Part shown: positions 41,226 through 52,054 of the stretch, in pieces
Layout of the letters: every line of letters begins with the position of its first letter
Numbering within the stretch: the first letter of the stretch is position 1
From: an uncultured bacterium
GTDB lineage: Bacteria; JAGOEH01
Length of the DNA: 57,855 nt
Direction: 5' to 3'
NCBI GenBank assembly: GCA_964632485.1
Contig: CAZWDO010000023.1
Location: 1-57,855, forward strand
Translations under genes and position numbers: made by a program
The notes under the pieces: generated by a model
Database searches by the model: none
Seen by the model: only the letters and a program-made list of their open reading frames with translations
What the model was told of the DNA's origin: nothing

Positions 41226-44200
41226 ATGACCCTTTCAACTGACAGTCAATTCACTCGAACAGAGCTCCACCGGGGCATGAGCCATCAGGTTTTTCGGATT
41301 GTGACCCAACAGGATGGCGCCGTGATTGTTAAACAGGCCATCGATGATGGCGCTTCCATCTCCAGACTGCGCCATGAGCAAGAGATTTTGGCGCGCTTGC
41401 AGGGAGTTACCGGTTGTCCCAGCTTGGTGCGCTATGACCCGGCGAACCGAAAATTGGTGATGGCGGATTTCGGCGGTGTCACGCTGAGTCAGTCCCACCT
41501 CGCAGGCCGGATGAACATAGAGCAGTTTCTATCCCTGTCCGAGGCGCTGGCGCTTATAGTGGCAGCCATCCATGCGCGCGGCGTCATCCATAAGGATCTC
41601 AATCCCGGCAACATTTTGGTCCGGCTGGACGATCTGCAACCACAGGTCATCGACTTTGATCTGGCAACGACCTTTGCTAAGGAAATGCCTGGATTTGAGC
41701 ATCCCGTCCACATGCAGGGTACGCCGGCGTACATGTCACCGGAGCAGACGGGACGGATGAACCGACCGGTCGACTACCGCGCGGATCTCTACTCTCTGGG
41801 CGCAACCCTGTATGAATTGGCCACCGGCGTACCGCAATTCGAAGAGACAGACACTCTCAGTCTGATGCATGCGCACCTGGCCCGGTCGCCGCGCCCGCCG
41901 TTTGAAATGGCGCCCTGGTTACCGCAGCGCTTGTCTGAGCTTATTCTGACGCTGTTGGCCAAAGAACCGGATGACCGCTATCAGAGCGCGGCTGGGTTAG
42001 CTTTTGATATACGGCGATTACGCGATGCCCTTGGTAACCATGAGTCGTTGGAGCAGGTTCAGCTCAGACTGAATGATATCCCTCTGGCGCCACGCCTGCC
42101 GCACCGTCTGTATGGGCGAGACCGCGAATTGGAAACGCTCCTCGGGGCTTTTGCGAGTGTGACCCAGGGCGGCTCACAGAATCTGTTTGTGGCAGGGTAT
42201 GCCGGGATTGGCAAAACGGCGCTGATTAACGAGATTCACCGCCCGGTCACCCTGGGTCGTGGTCTGTTTGTCAGCGGCAAGTTCGACCAATTCCAGCGCA
42301 ACCGGCCATTTCTAGCGCCAGCCCAGAGCTTGAACCAGTTGTGCCAATTGTTGTTGTCCGAATCCGAGGAAGTGGCGGCGCAGTGGCGTGAACGGATTTT
42401 GGCGGGCCTGGGCCAGGACGCAGGGGCGCTGTTCGGGGCTGTGCCCGACCTGGAACTGCTGCTCGGTCCCCAGCCCGATGCCCCGGAACTCGGCCCACAT
42501 GAAACCCAAATCCGGCTGCGCTCACTTTTGGTCGCGTTCGTGCGACAGGTGGCGGCGCCCGACCATCCGCTGGTACTGTTTCTGGATGACCTGCAGTGGG
42601 CTGACCAACCATCGCTGGAGTTTGTCAGTGCGCTGCTGGGGGAGACCTTTCTCAATGGGTTGCTGCTGATCGGCGCCTACCGCGACAATGAGGTGGATGC
42701 TTCTCATCCCCTCTACCGGTTGCTGCAACAGCCTGTTTTCTCGGGAGAACCCGTCCATCTGCTGACCCTTTCCAATCTGTCGGTTGATCAGATTGCCTTT
42801 CTGCTGGCCGATATGTTACACATGCCGCCTGATATCGTGCAGACTCTGGCGGCAGCGCTCCATGCCAAAACAAGCGGTAATCCGTTTTTTACTGTTGAAT
42901 TTCTCAATTTGCTCTATCGTGAAGGCGTGTTGTATCTTGATCTACCGCAAGGTACCTGGAGTTGGGATATTGAAGCGATTTTTTCGCACCCGGCCAGCGC
43001 CAATGTCGTGGACTTTTTGACAGCCCAACTGGCGGTACTGGCATCAGATACCGCTGGGGCATTGACCGTCGCGGCCTGTTTGGGAAACGAATGCCAATTG
43101 GGAAGGCTGGCGCTGGCATCCGGCGCTGTTCCTGGCGACCTGGTTGGTTGGCTGACTCCCGCCCTGGAGCGGGGCATCCTGGACACGCCCAATACACTGG
43201 CCTTCAATCAGGCGGAAGTTAACGTCCGGCTCAGGTTTTGTCATGACCGGATGCAACAGGCGGCCTATCATCTCTGCGATGATGGCGCGCGGGCTAAGCT
43301 GCATCTTTCCATCGCCCGGCGGTTGTTCCAGGCGGGCATCGATCCTGCTGATCCATTCAGCGTCGCCGGGCATTACGCCGCTGCGGCGCAGCTTATTGTC
43401 GAAACCGACGAACAGGCGCTGGCCCGCGCGTTATTTCTCAAGGCAGCGATCCAGTCCAACCATGTGGGCGCCTTTACCGCAGCGGAACGCTTGCTGCGCC
43501 TGGGGATGAGTTTGCTGGCGACAGATGCATGGACCACCGCCTTTGATGAGTCGTTCGCTTTCAATACTGAACTGCACTTGACGCTCTATCGACAGGCGCG
43601 CTTTTCCGAAGCGGATGAGGTCTATGCCCGGCTGGAAGCCCGGACGGAGGCGCCGGAGCGCCTGGTCGAAGCCACATGCCTGCAGATGAAGAGCCTCGCT
43701 GCCCGTACGGAGTACGATGCGGCGGTTCGGCTGGGTAGCGTCTTGTTGGAGCGGCTCGGTGTGACGGTTCCCCTGGCAGACCCCTCTGTCAGTCTAAGCC
43801 TCGATATGGAGCAGTTATACCGGATCGCCGAATCTGAAACAGAAACCTTTCTCCCGGATCGAATGGCGCCATCTGACCCGCGGCTGATCGGCACGGTCAG
43901 ACTGTTAGAGAGCGTGGCGTCAGCGGCCTCGCACTCCCAGCCATTGATCACTGGTTGGGTATCAGCGCGCTTTGCGCTCCAGTGGACCGAGACCGGCTAT
44001 CTGAATGATTATCTGACCATGATCACCGCGCTTATCATCACCACCATCGCATTACGTGGTGATTTTCACCTCGGTTATCGCGTCGCCCAGCGGGCGCTGG
44101 CGATGGGACTGGCGCACGAGCATGGCAATCAAACCGCCATTGTCCAACACCTCTACGCAATTTTCGTCAACCACTGGTTCAATCCGCTGGAAACGACACT

Positions 44201-46178
44201 GGGGTATGCCCGGGCGGCTTTCAATGGACTACTGCGCTGCGGTGACCTGGACTACGCGTGCATGAGCCTGGTATCGCCCATGACGGTCGTCTTTGAGACC
44301 GGCGCTCAACTTACGCAGATACAGCCGGAAGTCGCTGCGGCTCTAACCTTCGCCCGCAAGACCGGAAACCGGCACGCTGAACAAATTTATCTGCCCTATC
44401 AGCAGGTGGCGCATACCCTGGAGGGTGGCGCAATTTCGTCAGGTAGCTTCGATGACGATGATTTTCGGGAGCAGGATTTTTTGGAGGCCACTCAGGGAAA
44501 CCCTCAGGCCGGGTGCATGTTCCATGTCTTTCGGGCATTATCAGCAGCGATCTACCAGGATGACGTCACCCTGATCCGGGAGGCCGAGGCGGCAGTGAAT
44601 CTGACACCTTATGTTCTTGGCGTTTACATCACGGTTCAGGCCAATGCGCTGCATTCGCTTGCGCTGATCCAGCAAATTCGAACTGCCTCTGAATCCGGCC
44701 GTTCGGCGCTGCGGGAATGTCTGGAGCGCAACCAGGCTTGGTTGGCGGCGCGCGCCGCGGATGCGCCCATGAACTTTGGGCATCTCCACGAGTGGATTGC
44801 AGCAGAGTATCTGGATGCGTTTGATCAACCCTGGGAGGCGCTCCAGGGATTCGAACAGTCCATGCGTCATGCGCAGGGCAACCAGCGCCCCTGGCATTAC
44901 GCGCTCATTACCGAGCGCGCCGGGCAGGCCTATGCGCGGCGCGGGCTGGAACAAGCGAGCCGCTATCTGCTGTCGCGCGCTTGTCAGCTCTATCAGCAAT
45001 GGGGCGCTATCGGCAAGGTGCGGGCGATGCAGCGTGCGCTGCACTTTCTGGAAGTCAACCTGTTCAGGAGTTCGACCAGCAGCCAGGGGGATTCCATGGA
45101 CCATGAGGCGCTTCTGCGTGCTTCGCAGACCCTGGCCTCCGAGATTTCCAAACCGCGCCTGGTAGCGCGTGTGGTAGAACTGGTGGGACAGCTCACCGGC
45201 GCAACAGATACCCGTCTGCTATTGCTGGATGAGAACGATCAATGGCAGTTGGAGGGCGGGGTGCGGGACCAGGAACTATTGGACCATATACCGCTGGCAG
45301 ATGCCCGGGAACGACGGCTTGTTGCAGCCAGCGTCCTGCAATTGGGATTAAAAACCATGAAGCCGATCGTCTCCGATGACGCGGCGGTGGACAGCCGCTT
45401 TGCCGGCGACCCGCACTTTGCAGGGATGCCAATGTGTTCACTGCTGGCCGTGCCGGTGCTGGCGCGCGGTCGCGTCATCGCTTTCCTGACCCTGGAGAAC
45501 CGGTTAGCCCGGGCTGCCTTTACAGAAAGCCGCGTCGAGATGATTTCTCTGCTCTGTAGACAGTTGGCCGTTTCTCTTGAAAATACTCAGCTATACCAGT
45601 CGTTGGAGCGTAAGGTCGCCGAGCGCACTGCTGCGCTCTCCACGGCGAACGATCAGCTACAGCAGTTGAGCGAACGCGACGGGTTGACCAATGTGGCCAA
45701 TCGGCGCAAGTTTGATGCGGCTTATGAGATGGAGTGGCGGCGTGGTGTACGGACACGACAATCACTGGCAATACTTATGATAGATATTGACCGGTTTAAG
45801 CTCTATAACGATCACTATGGTCATCAGGTGGGTGACCGTTGTCTGCAGACCGTGGCGGCTGTTATCCAGGCTTCTGCGCAACGATCCGGCGAACTGGTGG
45901 CGCGCTACGGCGGGGAGGAATTTGTAGCTATTCTGCCTGGTCTGAATACCCAGTCTGCCAGTGAAGTAGCCGAGAAGATGCGCGCCACAGTTGAAGCGCA
46001 GCTCCTTGAACATGCATGTAACACACCTTCGCTTGTGGTCACCATCAGCGTCGGCGTTGCCGCCTGCATTCCGGAGAAAGCAGACCATCCGGGCGGATTG
46101 ATCGCTCAAGCTGATGCCTGTCTTTACCGCGCGAAAAACTCAGGACGCAATCAGGTCATCTGGCAACTGGATTGTTGA
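41226..46178 (+). CDS. Ser/Thr kinase-AAA ATPase-GAF-GGDEF diguanylate cyclase
   Basis: IHKDLNPGN, GTPAYMSPEQTG, Walker A GYAGIGKT, LFLDDLQW, GAF, ARYGGEEF; visibly GC-richer than flanks. Confidence 0.92.
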   Translation: MTLSTDSQFTRTELHRGMSHQVFRIVTQQDGAVIVKQAIDDGASISRLRHEQEILARLQGVTGCPSLVRYDPANRKLVMADFGGVTLSQSHLAGRMNIEQFLSLSEALALIVAAIHARGVIHKDLNPGNILVRLDDLQPQVIDFDLATTFAKEMPGFEHPVHMQGTPAYMSPEQTGRMNRPVDYRADLYSLGATLYELATGVPQFEETDTLSLMHAHLARSPRPPFEMAPWLPQRLSELILTLLAKEPDDRYQSAAGLAFDIRRLRDALGNHESLEQVQLRLNDIPLAPRLPHRLYGRDRELETLLGAFASVTQGGSQNLFVAGYAGIGKTALINEIHRPVTLGRGLFVSGKFDQFQRNRPFLAPAQSLNQLCQLLLSESEEVAAQWRERILAGLGQDAGALFGAVPDLELLLGPQPDAPELGPHETQIRLRSLLVAFVRQVAAPDHPLVLFLDDLQWADQPSLEFVSALLGETFLNGLLLIGAYRDNEVDASHPLYRLLQQPVFSGEPVHLLTLSNLSVDQIAFLLADMLHMPPDIVQTLAAALHAKTSGNPFFTVEFLNLLYREGVLYLDLPQGTWSWDIEAIFSHPASANVVDFLTAQLAVLASDTAGALTVAACLGNECQLGRLALASGAVPGDLVGWLTPALERGILDTPNTLAFNQAEVNVRLRFCHDRMQQAAYHLCDDGARAKLHLSIARRLFQAGIDPADPFSVAGHYAAAAQLIVETDEQALARALFLKAAIQSNHVGAFTAAERLLRLGMSLLATDAWTTAFDESFAFNTELHLTLYRQARFSEADEVYARLEARTEAPERLVEATCLQMKSLAARTEYDAAVRLGSVLLERLGVTVPLADPSVSLSLDMEQLYRIAESETETFLPDRMAPSDPRLIGTVRLLESVASAASHSQPLITGWVSARFALQWTETGYLNDYLTMITALIITTIALRGDFHLGYRVAQRALAMGLAHEHGNQTAIVQHLYAIFVNHWFNPLETTLGYARAAFNGLLRCGDLDYACMSLVSPMTVVFETGAQLTQIQPEVAAALTFARKTGNRHAEQIYLPYQQVAHTLEGGAISSGSFDDDDFREQDFLEATQGNPQAGCMFHVFRALSAAIYQDDVTLIREAEAAVNLTPYVLGVYITVQANALHSLALIQQIRTASESGRSALRECLERNQAWLAARAADAPMNFGHLHEWIAAEYLDAFDQPWEALQGFEQSMRHAQGNQRPWHYALITERAGQAYARRGLEQASRYLLSRACQLYQQWGAIGKVRAMQRALHFLEVNLFRSSTSSQGDSMDHEALLRASQTLASEISKPRLVARVVELVGQLTGATDTRLLLLDENDQWQLEGGVRDQELLDHIPLADARERRLVAASVLQLGLKTMKPIVSDDAAVDSRFAGDPHFAGMPMCSLLAVPVLARGRVIAFLTLENRLARAAFTESRVEMISLLCRQLAVSLENTQLYQSLERKVAERTAALSTANDQLQQLSERDGLTNVANRRKFDAAYEMEWRRGVRTRQSLAILMIDIDRFKLYNDHYGHQVGDRCLQTVAAVIQASAQRSGELVARYGGEEFVAILPGLNTQSASEVAEKMRATVEAQLLEHACNTPSLVVTISVGVAACIPEKADHPGGLIAQADACLYRAKNSGRNQVIWQLDC

Positions 46179-46470
46179 CAGACGATAGGCACTCTATCGA
46201 CAAAAGAATGATAGCATCTGTCATTTCTGGAATTTTGCGGTTTTACAATGGGATTCAGGTTTTGCCATAAATTGCAACTGGTTCTACCGATCTGACGGCT
46301 ATCCCATTAATTCTATAACAACGCCGACATCTCATAAAATAAATCTGTCCGAATTTTATAGTCAATATCTCGGTTTGGGGAAATCCGAAAAAAGAGAAAA
46401 CATATAATCATGCAGCTTATGGTTTTGATGCAAATAAAAACAATATTCTTATGAGTTTATTTACTTTGTA

Positions 46471-46584
46471 TTTAAAAAATTAGAGAAATGAAACAAAAAT
46501 AGTTCCCAAATCCACACCCTTGAAAAACTACGGAATACATTGTTGCCGAAGTTGATGAGCGGAGAAGTGAGGATAAGTTCCTGA
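46471..46584 (+). pseudogene. hsdS: 3' remnant of type I R-M specificity subunit
   Basis: FKKLEK*NKNSSQIHTLEKLRNTLLPKLMSGEVRISS*; LR.TLLPKLMSGE is the characteristic HsdS C-terminus. Confidence 0.8.
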
Positions 46585-47444
46585 GCAAATTTACACTTAG
46601 TAATATAGACACCTCTTTTGAAAGTTATCAACAGATTATCAATCTATACAACGAAAATAAAGACCGTGTGTTTGATAACATTGAAGTTTATTTTCGTCAA
46701 TGGTTTACAGCTAATTTATGCGCTCCACTTGGAGGCATTTTGGATCAGTTGATACAGGGTTTGAATACGATTTATATCAGTTCAATTCCAACTAATATAC
46801 AAACCATTCTTCAAAAAAATAATTTTCTGTCTTATTTCGGATACGATAGTGAATTGGATATAAACCGTACCACTATAAAATATCTAAAACTTAAACCCAC
46901 AGATAGCAGGTTTTTTCATAGGTATGTAGTGGAAGAACTATTGAATCGTCCTGAATTACCTTTAATGTCATCTCCATTAAAGAAAAAAATCACCGAATCT
47001 ATCTATGAAATTTTTGTTAATGCTCAAATCCATAGCGAGACAGGTTTTATTTATACTTGCGGGCAATTCTTTCCCAAAAAACATACGATTGAATTTACCG
47101 TTACTGATGTTGGAATTGGGTTTAAAAAGCGGGTCAATAACAGATTTGCCAGCAATCTTTCTTCGGTACAGGCTATACGATGGGCGATAAAAGACGGAAA
47201 TTCTACCAAACAGGGTATTTCTGGCGGTATTGGTTTAGCTATCCTCAGAGAATTTATTATCAAAAATAGTGGTAAAATTCAAATTATCAGTGACGATGGA
47301 TTTTATCAGCTTGATTCCGAAGGAGAACAAACAAGATTATTTTTGGGTTCTTTCCCCGGAACAATTATCAATATGCAATTTAGAACAGATGATACGGCAT
47401 CCTATTTTCTGAATAGTGAAAATATGCCGGATGATATTTTTTAG
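46581..47444 (+). CDS. GHKL/HATPase_c ATPase or anti-sigma-like kinase; probable CTG start at 46581 (track start 46668)
   Basis: N-box EIFVNAQIHS, DVGIG, GGIGL, FPGT; no HisKA H-box; frame open from 46524. Confidence 0.85.
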   Translation: MSKFTLSNIDTSFESYQQIINLYNENKDRVFDNIEVYFRQWFTANLCAPLGGILDQLIQGLNTIYISSIPTNIQTILQKNNFLSYFGYDSELDINRTTIKYLKLKPTDSRFFHRYVVEELLNRPELPLMSSPLKKKITESIYEIFVNAQIHSETGFIYTCGQFFPKKHTIEFTVTDVGIGFKKRVNNRFASNLSSVQAIRWAIKDGNSTKQGISGGIGLAILREFIIKNSGKIQIISDDGFYQLDSEGEQTRLFLGSFPGTIINMQFRTDDTASYFLNSENMPDDIF

Positions 47445-47458
47445 AGAGGAGTTTTACA

Positions 47459-47806
47459 ATGCAAGAAATTAATATCAGCGTATTTAATACAGTAGGTAAT
47501 CGTTTTTGTGTTGAGTCTGACGATGGACAAAACGTTTACAATTTAATTCAGAAAGCCCTTCAGGAAGGGAAAAAAGTCAAACTCTCTTTTCAGAATATAG
47601 AGATGTTGACATCTGCCTTTTTGAATACCGCCATCGGGCAGCTTTATCGGGATTTTTCCGAGGATAAAATTAAAAACAGTTTAACGGTAGAATATTTATC
47701 ACCCGAAGATAAAGTTTTATTCAAAAGGGTAACCACAACCGCTAAACTTTACTATAAAGACCCGGAAAGAATGCAGAATTCCATTAAAGAAATTTTAGGA
47801 GAATAA
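47459..47806 (+). CDS. STAS-like (DUF4325) protein
   Basis: DGQNVY...VKLSFQNIEMLTSAFLNTAIGQLY; GAGGAG RBS. Confidence 0.85.
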   Translation: MQEINISVFNTVGNRFCVESDDGQNVYNLIQKALQEGKKVKLSFQNIEMLTSAFLNTAIGQLYRDFSEDKIKNSLTVEYLSPEDKVLFKRVTTTAKLYYKDPERMQNSIKEILGE

Positions 47807-47808
47807 TC

Positions 47809-48354
47809 ATGGCAAAACGTTATAATCTGACTGAAATATTTCGGTTGAGTAAAAAACGTATTTTCTTTGATGCCAACATTCTGATTTATCTTTTTTGGCC
47901 CACCAATAGTTCCTGGGAAAGGCAATATTCAACCATTTACAATCGCCTTCTACAACAAAAAAATGATATGGTTGTAGATTTCATCGTTATTTCTGAAGTG
48001 ATTAATCGAGCAATCAGATTTGAATATGATAATTATTGTGAGCAGAATAACATTCCCAAAGATGATTTACCATTCAAGGCATATCGGGATAATCAGGAGG
48101 GGCAGGAAGCTTTAGACGATATTTATCAGATAGTAAAAAGAAAAATTGTTAATAAATTTACGATTGCTGGTAAATCATTCACTAAAACAGATATTGAAGG
48201 TTTTCTGCAAAATGATGGTTTAGATTTTTCCGATAAAGGCATTGCTGCTCTTTGTAAAGAAAATGATTTTGTTCTTCTGACCAACGATAAAGATTTTGCA
48301 ACTGTCAATGTGGAACTTTTAACATCCAACCCGGTGTTATTGATAACGCCATGA
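47809..48354 (+). CDS. PIN-domain ribonuclease
   Basis: FFDANILIY, VISEVIN, LDFSD, LTNDKDF: full acidic active-site set. Confidence 0.88.
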   Translation: MAKRYNLTEIFRLSKKRIFFDANILIYLFWPTNSSWERQYSTIYNRLLQQKNDMVVDFIVISEVINRAIRFEYDNYCEQNNIPKDDLPFKAYRDNQEGQEALDDIYQIVKRKIVNKFTIAGKSFTKTDIEGFLQNDGLDFSDKGIAALCKENDFVLLTNDKDFATVNVELLTSNPVLLITP

Positions 48355-48495
48355 TAAAAACATCGATCCGCTATCGAAAATTTGTATGCAATAGAACTGC
48401 TGGAAAAAAATGGGCGATGGATACGTTTACACACCAGATATCGCCCCAGATAGCGAACCACCCGTGCGTCAATCCTTTGAAGATATTCTGTACAA
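48351..48495 (+). pseudogene. hsdR: 5' remnant of type I restriction subunit R (frameshifted)
   Basis: ATGA overlap with the PIN stop; SAIENLYAIELLEK, shift in the A7 run at 48404-48410, then MGDGYVYTPDIAPDSEPPVRQSFEDILY. Confidence 0.75.
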
Positions 48496-48542: not shown

Positions 48543-48588
48543 AAAAGGTTAACTGGGGCTACCGGATGAGCCCCGGTTAACCTTTTTT
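48543..48588. terminator. Probable bidirectional intrinsic terminator
   Basis: AAAAGGTTAACTGGGGCT-8 nt-AGCCCCGGTTAACCTTTT(TT); 18-bp stem with one G-U pair. Confidence 0.75.
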
Positions 48589-48591
48589 GCC

Positions 48592-48696
48592 CGTGACTAT
48601 AGTTTTGGCTTTACTATTGTTGTTCTAACCAACGTTGATCACCCTTTAGTCGCTGAGATAGGAAACGAAATTCTCAAGATACTTGGGTTAGAATAG
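48592..48696 (+). pseudogene. C-terminal scrap resembling a serine hydrolase (beta-lactamase-related)
   Basis: FGFTIVVLTNVDHPLVAEIGNEILKILGLE*. Confidence 0.4.
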
Positions 48697-49583: not shown

Positions 49584-49889
49584 ATGATGACCAATGTTTT
49601 AACTGTAGAAATGGTGGATGATGCCGGGCGCTTTAAGCAGCGTCTGGGCATTTTTTTATGTGTGTTTTACGCTCTGGTCTATGCAGGCTTTGTCGTCATC
49701 TCTGTTTATGACGTAACTCTCATGGATACGATCATGCCTTTCGGATTGAATCTGGCAGCTTTTTACGGGCTGGGGCTGATTGTGTTTGCTTTGTTACTGG
49801 CTATGTTGTATAGCAGGGCTTGTACGTTAAAGGAAAGAAGTGTCTGCCCGAAAGCGGATGTTATCACTAAGGAGGGAATTGACGCATGA
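49584..49889 (+). CDS. DUF485 (YjcH-like) small membrane protein
   Basis: RLGIFLCVFYALVYAGFV...GLNLA..YGLGLI; usual partner upstream of actP. Confidence 0.8.
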   Translation: MMTNVLTVEMVDDAGRFKQRLGIFLCVFYALVYAGFVVISVYDVTLMDTIMPFGLNLAAFYGLGLIVFALLLAMLYSRACTLKERSVCPKADVITKEGIDA

Positions 49890-52054
49890 CTTCTATTTTA
49901 ATTTTTGTAGGATTCGTATTATTTTTGTTTTGGTTGTCCTGGTTTTTAGGGAGGAAATCCCAGACTGAGGATGGATTTTTTGTAGCAGGTGGTCAGATTC
50001 ATTGGTTTATCAATGGTATTGCGTTGACCGGAGGGTATCTTTCGGCAGCGTCGTTTTTAGGTATTTGCGGGATGATTGCCTTCAAAGGCTTTGACGGATA
50101 TCTGTATTCCATTGGTTTTCTTTCTGGATGGGTAGTTGCTCTTTTTGTGGTAGCAGAACCTTTGCGGCGTTTAGGTAAGTACACCTTTGCTGATGCCCTG
50201 GAATCTCGATTTCAGTCCAGGACTATCCATCTGGCAGCCGGAATTAGCACTCTGGTTATCTGTATGTGCTATCTGGTCCCACAGATGGTAGGAGCAGGCG
50301 TTTTGATAGAGCCTTTGCTGGGCATCTCACATCACTGGGGCGTGATCCTGGTGGGAACAGTGGTGATTGTAGTGGTTGCCAGCGCTGGCATGTCTTCAAC
50401 CACTTATGTGCAATTCATTAAAGCGGGTATGCGGGTATGCTGATTATCTTTTCTGGCGTATTAGTAGCCGCGGTTTGCATTCGGGGACTGGAGACCACGC
50501 CGAACACAGTCAACGCCCGCGGGGAGATAGTTGCCCACTACTCGTTCCTTACACTGCCCATTGATGAAAGCAAGTCATGGGAAGAAAACCTGGCTGGAAC
50601 GCCTTATGCTTTTGTAGATATTGTAAAGGTGGCAGGCAGGAAGCTCGGTGAAGCTCCACAGAGATGGGCGCTGATGAACGAATGGGTTCCGCTGGAGAGG
50701 GGCGTCGAAGACCCTGCGACTTATTACCTGTTTCGTCATGGACAGCGTTTGCCTGCCATCCATGACCCCAATGGCGCGATTGCTGACTTGGTTATGGCTG
50801 ATACCCTGCAAGAAAAGCAGCAAATTACTATTCAAAACTTACAGGTTAAAAAAATTGATGGCACTCCCTATGCGCTGTTAAAAAAGCTGGTGGCTGTTCG
50901 ATAATATTGCAAAGGGAACTGCAGCTCTGCGGGAAGCTCAGAACATTACAAAATCTTTCCATGGCGATATGTTTATCAATGGTCTGCCTTCCGGTGGGAG
51001 TAATATGTTGGCTTCCATGGGGCGCATTGTCAGATTTGGCTCACGAAGCGGGCATGATGGTAAGGGAGGTCCCATTGGTCCCTTACGGCTGTTATCAGTT
51101 TTTGCAGATCCCGAAACAGAAGTTGAATTGCCTCGAAGTACAACTATTCGCTATGGGGATGACAATGTTACCCTGTACTACCATAAGTTGATTACTGGCA
51201 ATGAACTTATGAGGCCCGGCGGCCATTTTGATATCGCTAAAAATAGCCCATGGGGCAGGCTGGATTTCATCTCTCTTATGATAGCGCTGTTTTTCGGAAC
51301 GGCGGCTCTTCCTCATGTTTTAATCCGTTATTACACTGTTCGTGATTCTACCGCTGCCCGTCGTTCAACTATCGTCGCCATCTCGGCGATTGGTTTGTTT
51401 TATATCCTGACGCTTTTTTTGGGTCTTGGAGCCATCGCAAACGGTGTTTTGAATCCCCTGACCGAAAATATGTTGGCGCCACTCTTAGCTCGAAGTTTCG
51501 GAGGAGCGCTTTTTGCTATCATTACCGCCCTGGCTTTCGCTACGGTATTAGGAACTGTATCCGGGCTGATTGTCGCCGCCTCGGGCGCAGTGGCTAATGA
51601 TTTGATGGACAAGTTCTTTAAAATGGAGATGAGCGGAAAATCAAAGGTTTTCGCTGCTAAGCTTACAGCTATTATAGTGGGCGCTATCTCCGTGGCGCTG
51701 GGCATCCTGTTCCAGGGAGTGAACGTAGGTTTTCTGGTGGGATTGGCTTTTGCAGTAGCTGCATCGGCAAATTTTCCCTCCATTATTATGATTTTATTCT
51801 GGAAACGAACATCGGCAGCCGGAATAGTTTCTTCAATTTTTGTTGGCGCTACGGTCTCTATGGGGATTATTCTGGCGGGACCCGATATGTTTAAACTCTA
51901 CGGATTCTCCAGCGCGGATGCTTGGTTTCCTATGGGGCAACCGGCAATTATTTCTATGCCCCTAAGTTTTCTGACCCTCATTTTGGTATCTCTAATGACT
52001 CCACAAGGAAGAGCGAATAGTAAATTTGTTCGTTCTGAGGGAGAAATTGGGTAG
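49886..52054 (+). pseudogene. actP: Cation/acetate symporter (SSS family) split by two frameshifts
   Basis: NGIALTGGYLSAASFLG; LFFGTAALPHVLIRYYTV; AFAVAASANFP; 8-nt duplication at 50423-50438 and an extra base near the A6 run at 50880-50885. Confidence 0.85.

Follow-up and report, generated by a model that had tools for sequence, protein, structure and literature searches.

A probable vapKSC-type toxin-antitoxin module between type I restriction-modification remnants in an uncultured bacterium

The kinase-STAS-PIN cassette and its flanks

In a contig of an uncultured bacterium (NCBI GenBank assembly GCA_964632485.1, contig CAZWDO010000023.1, positions 1 to 57,855, this whole stretch of 57,855 nucleotides being called the window hereafter), three co-oriented genes located at 46581-48354 on the + strand encode, in this order, a STAS+GHKL kinase, a STAS-like (DUF4325) protein and a PIN nuclease. 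According to the coordinates of their open reading frames (ORFs), the intergenic gaps are 14 nt between the kinase and STAS genes and 2 nt between the STAS and PIN genes, and their GC content is 33-36% vs 55-61% in the upstream gene and about 46-50% across most of the window. Scraps of a type I restriction-modification (R-M) operon adjoin the cassette on both sides. In all likelihood, these three genes form a vapKSC-type, kinase-gated toxin-antitoxin with a role against phages, of the kind described by Chambers, Rani, Min, Villa and Corbett (EMBO J 2026; PMC13373217; preprint 10.64898/2026.02.02.703251). The features of the locus are as follows.

46492..46584, + strand: remnant of the 3' end of hsdS, comprising its last ~30 codons and the stop codon TGA (46582-46584), recognized with an HsdS profile
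46581..47444, + strand: vapK-like gene of 287 codons, with a predicted N-terminal STAS-like domain and a C-terminal GHKL Ser/Thr kinase domain of the anti-sigma-factor type (Pfam, homologues, AlphaFold model)
47459..47806, + strand: vapS-like gene for a putative 115-aa STAS-like antitoxin with predicted phosphosite S52 and a C-terminal helical region (Pfam, PDB 9z7o_A, alignment)
47809..48354, + strand: vapC-like gene for a putative 181-aa PIN-domain nuclease toxin with a complete acidic active site (Pfam, alignment A2, model)
48351..48495, + strand: remnant of the 5' end of hsdR, about its first 46 codons with two frameshifts, then truncated (three-frame translation, HsdR profile)
48543..48586, no strand assigned: terminator-like hairpin just past the hsdR remnant, an 18-nt inverted repeat with 94% complementarity and an 8-nt loop followed by a T run (pattern match only)

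Regarding the upstream flank, window positions 46492-46581 correspond to the last conserved HsdS block (profile positions 387-414 of 419, E 5.1e-13), and the hsdS stop codon overlaps the first codon of the kinase frame as C-T-G-A, the relatives having A-T-G-A. On the other side, an ATG at 48351-48353 overlaps the stop codon of the PIN gene (48352-48354) and the HsdR N-terminus continues in two other frames. By eye, in a three-frame translation, this remnant closely parallels the HsdR start of the homologous locus L001, and its match to the HsdR profile is weak (positions 18-46, E 0.009). Since the similarity to HsdR ends near 48495, hsdR is truncated as well as frameshifted. The HsdS, HsdR and HsdM profiles were built from proteins of related loci, and a Pfam check of the hsd proteins of one of them, L025, returned N6_Mtase and HsdM_N, Methylase_S, and HSDR_N, SWI2_SNF2 and T1RH-like_C. 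The initial annotation of the window, which had been made from the sequence alone, read the flanks as an HsdS C-terminus and a frameshifted HsdR N-terminus, and the profile match and the comparison with L001 agree with this assignment. A further HsdS-like stretch at 46343-46480 (profile positions 305-334) was not significant (E 0.33) and was not counted.

Of the hsd genes, this locus retains some 90 nt from hsdS and some 145 nt from hsdR; there is no complete hsdS upstream, and neither hsdM nor hsdR survives beyond the 5' hsdR remnant. Other HsdR-like genes of the source genome lie on other contigs and are just 31-33% identical to the query HsdR. The module, whose STAS gene is single-copy in the source genome, is now an orphan there, and may stem from decay of a type I operon in place or from arrival as a fragment. 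Comparison of the 6-kb locus with 30 other genomes (one of the same family and one more of the same order) gave only chance-level matches of 35-51 nt.

The module had also been called intact, which is only partly true. Indeed, the kinase frame is open over 287 codons, being longer than in the ORF list, and its translation from 46584 can be aligned over the full length of homologues of 285-287 aa. The three proteins are conserved as well: among the family-conserved columns (conservation of 90% or more across 119 relatives), deviations are seen at 2 of 115 positions for the kinase, 1 of 39 for the STAS protein and 3 of 55 for the PIN protein, all within the range of ordinary members. However, codon 1 of the kinase (46581-46583) is CTG, at a position occupied by Met in all 25 database homologues of the kinase alignment (A1). 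The closest loci start this gene with ATG (L003, L006) or GTG (L004) at an otherwise very similar junction, and the first canonical start codon in the window gene is a GTG at 46668. A Shine-Dalgarno-like motif, GAGGA, lies about 9 nt upstream of the CTG.

Protein architecture and relation to VapKSC

The kinase is matched by the Pfam family HATPase_c (E 3.8e-5, with 24.5 bits just below the curated cut-off of 26.4), and no DHp/H-box domain was found in it with Pfam. In its AlphaFold model (mean predicted local distance difference test, pLDDT, of 87.6), residues 1-87 are predicted to adopt a STAS fold matching the STAS antagonist TM1442 (Z 9.4, root-mean-square deviation (rmsd) 2.2, 86 aligned residues), while residues 94-271 have SpoIIAB as their best predicted fold match (Z 14.0, rmsd 2.5, 132 aligned). 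The further top matches of this kinase domain are RsbW (Z 11.6), UsfX and the RsbW domain of Rv1364c, the CA domains of histidine kinases scoring lower (Z at most 9.7). The residues of the N, G1 and G2 boxes are invariant in A1, as is F41, and W40 is nearly so (query numbering).

The STAS protein belongs to the Pfam family DUF4325 'STAS-like' (E 6.3e-19) and its residues 7-103 match PDB chain 9z7o_A, 'Escherichia VapS' (E 5.9e-13). In its L-T-S-A-F motif, T51 is invariant and the next position, 52, holds either S or T throughout the 29 aligned rows, and S52 of the window protein aligns with a Ser of the crystallised VapS chain. Assuming that this 134-residue chain carries an 18-residue tag, as the 116-residue length of VapS in the article suggests, the aligned Ser would be the published S48. 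The PIN protein is recognized by the Pfam family PIN (E 1.1e-8), and its acidic residues D21, E63, D139, D142, D160 and D162 are invariant in 29/29 aligned members, including that of the window (alignment A2). Its model (pLDDT 95.2) has VapC, FitB and PAE0151 PIN toxins as best Foldseek matches, 9z7o not being among the matches listed (pdb library up to 2026-04-08). The initial annotation had proposed three tightly spaced, AT-rich genes for a GHKL ATPase devoid of an H-box, a STAS-like protein and a PIN domain retaining all its acidic residues, and the Pfam assignments, alignment A2 and the short intergenic gaps bear out this description.

Modelling of the STAS-PIN complex, which had been suggested as a check, returned a score of 0.86 for the predicted pair vs 0.00 for the best control; the mark applied to this score is reached by 58 of 80 solved complexes and by 2 of 110 mismatched pairs. 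The prediction runs share at least 93% of their contacts, with a pLDDT of at least 92 for the partners. In the predicted interface, STAS residues 51-57 and 83-115 face PIN residues 23-49, 67-79, 104-116 and 159, the tightest contacts being those of STAS 51-53 with PIN 28-31 and 40-41, while the STAS C-terminus (83-115) runs along PIN 67-79, 104-116 and 159. Because a like complex has already been solved, this prediction points to likeness rather than giving proof of binding.

In the vapKSC system, as reported by Chambers et al. (PMC13373217), VapS consists of a STAS domain followed by a brief stretch at the C-terminus, and VapC is a nuclease of the PIN type. VapS acts as antitoxin to VapC, and phosphorylation of its conserved Ser frees the toxin. 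In the VapS2VapC2 crystal structure, the interface buries Ser48, the Escherichia representative of an absolutely conserved Ser/Thr of the STAS domain, and the C-terminal helix comes close to the active site, VapS not displacing the active-site Mg2+ of VapC. VapC is toxic and its toxicity is abolished by the D28A substitution; it is neutralised by VapS and neither by the S48E variant nor upon deletion of the VapS C-terminus. The Escherichia operon protected E. coli on its own, giving about 2 logs of protection against phage Bas42, which was lost in VapC D28A, VapS S48A and VapK F54A. VapK, in which a CapK-like STAS domain precedes the GHKL kinase domain, was insoluble and activation of the kinase was not directly tested in that study, in which AlphaFold 3 predicted its binding to single-stranded DNA (ssDNA), F54 being the conserved aromatic residue for this binding. 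Of the 289 vapKSC instances counted by the authors, 36% have a further defence gene at 10 kb or less.

The window cassette shares with VapKSC the gene order, the STAS+GHKL kinase, a STAS protein of the size (about 116 aa) and C-terminal helix expected of such an antitoxin, and a VapC-like PIN protein. Homology of the STAS protein to VapS is direct, with the phospho-Ser aligned, and the catalytic Asp is aligned through an intermediate homologue; moreover, the predicted interface buries the phosphosite and places the C-terminus near the active site, as in the description of the crystal structure. The assignment to a vapKSC-type module relies on what was observed here, namely gene order, domain architectures, homology to VapS, conservation of the phosphosite and catalytic residues, the predicted STAS-PIN interface and the co-travel of the three genes described below. 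In contrast to the published system, the window cassette represents a diverged subfamily whose PIN protein has no direct match to Escherichia VapC; its lineage is often found between hsdS and hsdR, and the window copy itself has a CTG kinase start and retains only scraps of hsd genes.

By homology with this system, the PIN (VapC-like) protein would be an RNase toxin, kept inactive by the STAS (VapS-like) protein, which would bind it through the STAS face around T51/S52 with its C-terminal helix beside the active site. Once activated, the STAS+GHKL (VapK-like) protein, a presumed Ser/Thr kinase of the SpoIIAB type, would phosphorylate S52, and this phosphorylation would break the STAS-PIN complex and free the toxin, with growth arrest or abortive infection as an outcome. 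The activator, as predicted for the published homologue, may be ssDNA produced upon DNA damage or infection by a phage. For the window module itself, we infer that the kinase is active and senses ssDNA, as well as toxicity and defence, and the CTG-initiated kinase may or may not still be made in this bacterium. The core of the mechanism put forward in the initial annotation, a STAS protein gating a PIN toxin through its phosphorylation, agrees with what has been shown experimentally by Chambers et al. for the homologous vapKSC. The accompanying statement that no system of this composition had been characterised falls, since this mechanism was validated by others on a homologue. The kinase-gated STAS-PIN toxin switch that had been deduced from sequence matches a system demonstrated experimentally in 2026 and its central claim is no longer new; what the present analysis adds is context, i.e., taxonomic spread, hsd embedding and repeated hsd fragments.

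Several other known systems have parts in common with the cassette. In CapK-CapS, which is often found beside R-M operons, the kinase is likewise a GHKL protein, has a STAS domain within it and, in response to ssDNA, phosphorylates a STAS partner; however, CapK has an additional N-terminal helix-turn-helix (HTH) domain and CapS, a transcriptional repressor, has a C-terminal winged HTH (wHTH). Neither of these two domains is present in the window proteins, for which a directly bound toxin is the predicted output. Among the partner switches SpoIIAB-SpoIIAA and RsbW-RsbV, the kinases SpoIIAB and RsbW are the closest solved folds for the kinase domain, and their substrate is likewise a STAS protein, in which Ser/Thr stands where the corresponding helix starts. 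In switches of the SpoIIAB/SpoIIAA type, the kinase is also an anti-sigma factor and resetting is by a PP2C phosphatase, whereas the window kinase carries a STAS domain of its own and the regulated partner is not a sigma factor. No conserved sigma factor or PP2C phosphatase gene was found beside the cassette among the neighbour clusters of 81 sources. VapBC, a type II toxin-antitoxin, resembles the cassette in that a PIN (VapC-like) toxin, its acidic site being complete, is paired with a protein inhibitor encoded next to it and co-transcribed. In the cassette, however, a STAS (DUF4325) protein takes the place of VapB with its DNA-binding domain as antitoxin, and there is an additional gene, that of the kinase, as trigger. 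In the survey of Matelska et al. (NAR 2017, PMC5499597), PIN.4 is a subfamily assignment, i.e., classification only. Finally, PrrC/EcoprrI and TgvAB are likewise second defences carried within a type I R-M operon, although their proteins are unrelated and embedding is optional for the window family. Pfam and fold searches of the window proteins returned GHKL, STAS and PIN only and nothing of the PrrC type, i.e., an ABC-ATPase with an anticodon nuclease.

Distribution of the cassette and its type I restriction-modification context

At an E-value of at most 0.001, 804 relatives of the kinase (out of 1343 candidates), 353 of the STAS protein (out of 356) and 360 of the PIN protein (out of 394) were retrieved. 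When genomes, one for each species, were scanned using the kinase alignment, 106 relatives were obtained, of which the best 80 were kept as loci. The order kinase-STAS-PIN on one strand is found in 73 of these 80 loci, which answers positively the question of co-occurrence raised at the outset. Another five loci are cut by a contig end and are consistent as far as visible (L004, L007, L013, L039, L078), and two are broken, L006 being devoid of STAS and PIN genes and L071 retaining the PIN tail only. No different effector was seen beside this kinase family among the 80 loci and, apart from the three genes themselves, the most frequent neighbour clusters are hsd genes and reach at most 21 of the 81 sources.

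According to record titles, the hosts are mostly Bacteroidota, together with Spirochaetota, Brocadiaceae, Desulfobacteraceae, Neisseriaceae, Burkholderiales, Clostridia, Cloacimonadales and two archaea. This diverged vapKSC branch spans Bacteroidota, Spirochaetota, Planctomycetota, Thermodesulfobacteriota, Pseudomonadota and even Methanosarcinales archaea. Plasmid P5 of Deinococcus gobiensis (L086:4560-6912) has a far more diverged cassette (29-34% identity) annotated as 'ATP-binding / STAS-like / PIN', with an HTH regulator gene in front and GIY-YIG nuclease genes nearby. Since a homologue of the STAS protein was found in only one record of the plasmid collection and three records of the phage collection, one of which covers at least 80% of the query, the cassette is not typically phage- or plasmid-borne in the collections searched. 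Among IMG/VR viral contigs scanned with A1, none of 111 pattern stretches encodes a relative.

The type I R-M context of the window recurs in this family. A full-length hsdS ends at most 7 nt from the kinase start in 8 of the 80 loci, hsdR starts at most 15 nt from the PIN stop in 12 and lies 185-1268 nt past the PIN gene in 3 more, and both hsdS and hsdR directly adjoin the cassette in 5 (L023, L025, L048, L065, L075), so that intact hsdS-kinase-STAS-PIN-hsdR operons exist elsewhere, as in L025. Some hsd gene or fragment on the same strand is present in 24 of the 80 loci. These counts are lower bounds, the profiles having been derived from the loci's own proteins and the sequence of 11 of the 80 loci stopping within fewer than 300 nt of the last cassette gene seen. 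Embedding in type I R-M operons is thus recurrent but not obligatory, and the hsd operon membership that the initial annotation had asked about holds for part of the family, the exact hsdS-hsdR slot being occupied in 5 loci only. In a quick tree of 79 kinases (L002 and L039, with a split kinase, were excluded), the hsd context is scattered, with 19 changes vs a mean of 21.6 upon shuffling and 53 of 500 shuffles giving values as low. In this tree the window falls nearest to L001, L006 and L003, each of them hsd-linked and the three belonging to different phyla.

Several hsd fragments hint at how such cassettes may be exchanged. A direct repeat of 146 nt from the 5' end of hsdR (L018:4268-4413 and L018:6296-6441, 97% identical) flanks the cassette of L018 within a type I operon; the upstream copy lies about 130 nt before the kinase and the other is the start of the full hsdR, so that the repeat looks like the footprint of an integration by recombination at the hsdR start. 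In L001 (9745-10005) and L006 (8250-8740), a piece of the HsdR N-terminus is joined to a piece of the HsdS C-terminus, in the form of short ORFs or fragments located between another embedded cassette (an AAA ATPase and a subtilase in L001) and the kinase-STAS-PIN genes, as though a splice had joined two type I loci. L017 has 25 hsdR codons after the PIN gene and L009 an hsdS tail before the kinase, neither with a type I operon in view; the layout of the window is the same, a unit with hsd ends. It is conceivable, and we put it forward tentatively, that type I operons serve as exchange platforms in which a unit made of the hsdS 3' end, a cassette and the hsdR 5' end moves by recombination through the conserved hsd ends, occasionally landing elsewhere as in the window, and that the embedded cassette forms a second layer fired by ssDNA derived from restriction and its processing.

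That other defences are carried in type I operons is by itself well known, TgvAB (PMC11411939) being one of them; PrrC is cited as almost exclusively type I-embedded by Payne et al. (2024; 'guilt by embedding', 10.1101/2024.01.29.577857). The main text of Chambers et al. (PMC13373217) makes no mention of hsd genes or of type I embedding for vapKSC, and the idea that restriction damage may arm a second system is raised in that article for CapKS only. The residual interest of the cassette, a modest one, lies in the recurrent, translationally coupled hsdS-cassette-hsdR layout and in the repeated hsd fragments hinting at how embedded cassettes are swapped. If this coupling is functional, it would offer a concrete case in which DNA damage generated by restriction arms a second, abortive layer.

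Other genes embedded in, or neighbouring, these loci include GmrSD, YhcG/DUF1016, RhuM, Schlafen-AlbA_2, a type IIG enzyme and an AAA+subtilase pair. A YhcG/DUF1016 gene for a PDDEXK nuclease (cluster c14) recurs in the cassette-bearing type I operons L001, L003, L006 and L007 (e.g., L007:4835-5944). L048 has an embedded GmrSD gene, and in L003 and L034 the PIN gene is followed by genes of the RhuM family.

Alternative explanations and neighbouring genes

Several observations weigh against the assignment of the window cassette to a vapKSC-type module. Search of PDB sequences with the window PIN protein, as a single sequence or as the 29-sequence profile A2, did not retrieve Escherichia VapC. 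Its homology with the latter is transitive only, through the PIN protein of the Deinococcus plasmid, which is 29% identical to that of the window (E 3e-15) and matches 9z7o_C, 'Escherichia VapC', with an E-value of 9.7e-9, D28 of VapC standing opposite D21 of the window protein. Regarding the kinase, a search of PDB sequences with profile A1 gave nothing significant, and the match in architecture comes through a predicted structure. The models of PADLOC v2.0.0 recognized neither the STAS nor the PIN protein and gave only a weak DrmA match for the kinase (E 6.5e-4). At the cassette, 8 promoter-like sites for an operon were found vs 11.0 expected, none above chance, scans of this kind being weak evidence; because of this and of its CTG start, the sensor kinase may be poorly expressed, or not expressed, in this bacterium. 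Finally, the closest relative at the DNA level, from a Thioploca sp. metagenome-assembled genome (L002:9993-11754; 72% identity, strictly within the cassette), consists of pseudogenes, with an in-frame stop in the kinase and a frameshifted PIN gene. L002 has no hsd remnants and has an ITPase-like gene upstream, and this copy shows that orphan cassettes decay. With NCBIfam, only weak histidine-kinase and VapC matches, far below the cut-offs, were obtained.

Alternatively, the window may hold a module that has ceased to act as a sensor-gated defence, the kinase being silent for want of an ATG and of an operon promoter and the STAS-PIN pair persisting in foreign, decaying DNA as an addictive toxin-antitoxin remnant. 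The hsd genes reduced to scraps, the segment of 34-36% GC between sequences of other composition, and the losses in L071 and L006 speak in the same direction as the CTG codon, the promoter scan and the Thioploca copy. However, the three frames of the window are open and as conserved as in typical family members, and a Shine-Dalgarno-like motif precedes the CTG. Non-AUG start codons can be used, and promoter scans are of little weight. With intact STAS and PIN genes and a kinase deprived of a canonical start, a plain addictive remnant is therefore a live possibility, which we nonetheless regard as clearly the less probable one. The initial annotation had proposed addiction or autonomous function for the cassette; this is a reasonable inference, and in the published homologue the STAS-PIN pair is a toxin-antitoxin, which by analogy may hold for the window pair.

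Another explanation, proposed in the initial annotation, is that of an R-M guard in which the module would be wired physically or functionally to the type I enzyme and would fire upon inhibition of HsdRMS, e.g., by Ocr, ArdA or Stp-like proteins, rather than upon a general signal. PrrC occupies a comparable slot in the prr locus, and the loci in which the cassette sits between hsdS and hsdR with stop/start overlaps on both sides, those in which a full-length hsdS or an hsdR adjoins it, those with some hsd gene or fragment on the same strand and the window itself, which retains exactly these two junctions, all lend themselves to this explanation. Nevertheless, same-strand hsd genes were not seen in 56 of the 80 loci (although a good number of contigs are short and type I families other than those profiled may have been missed), the hsd context is scattered on the quick kinase tree and not significantly clustered, and none of the three proteins resembles the ABC ATPase or the anticodon nuclease of PrrC. 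Moreover, the published Escherichia operon is reported to be protective by itself, with a kinase predicted to bind ssDNA (PMC13373217). A PrrC-like role is thus not borne out; the idea is unproven, is not required by the data and seems improbable to us. Less probable still, to the point of being barely credible, is a transcriptional switch of the CapK/CapS type, in which the kinase-STAS pair would control the expression of a neighbouring gene with no direct inhibition of a toxin. The two systems are homologous in kind, both combining a GHKL kinase with a STAS substrate, and CapK/CapS follows R-M operons in 88 of 443 cases (PMC13373217). However, the 115-aa STAS protein of the window comprises a STAS-like domain and a short helix only, devoid of a wHTH, the kinase begins with a STAS fold at residue 1 with no HTH (Pfam, model), STAS-PIN binding is predicted with high confidence and the PIN gene always directly follows the STAS gene.

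A vapKSC-type module, of a lineage often carried in type I R-M operons between hsdS and hsdR, is thus the explanation that we favour for the window cassette. Overall, the observation made in the initial annotation is confirmed and its interpretation is partly supported. Since the module is probably an orphan in its source genome, the biological weight of this single locus is probably small.

Directly upstream of the cassette, the window encodes at 41226-46178 (+ strand) a protein of 1650 aa that combines domains of the protein kinase, AAA_16 (STAND-like), GAF and GGDEF types, in DNA whose GC content of 55-61% is well above that of the window on average. A small ORF fragment at 48586-48696 had no match in Pfam. 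Further downstream, at 49584-52054 (+ strand), a DUF485 gene is followed by a sodium:solute symporter split over two ORFs (SSF profile positions 1-151 and 202-406), between which lies a 155-aa ORF (50437-50904), in keeping with an interrupted gene or a gene with an insertion.

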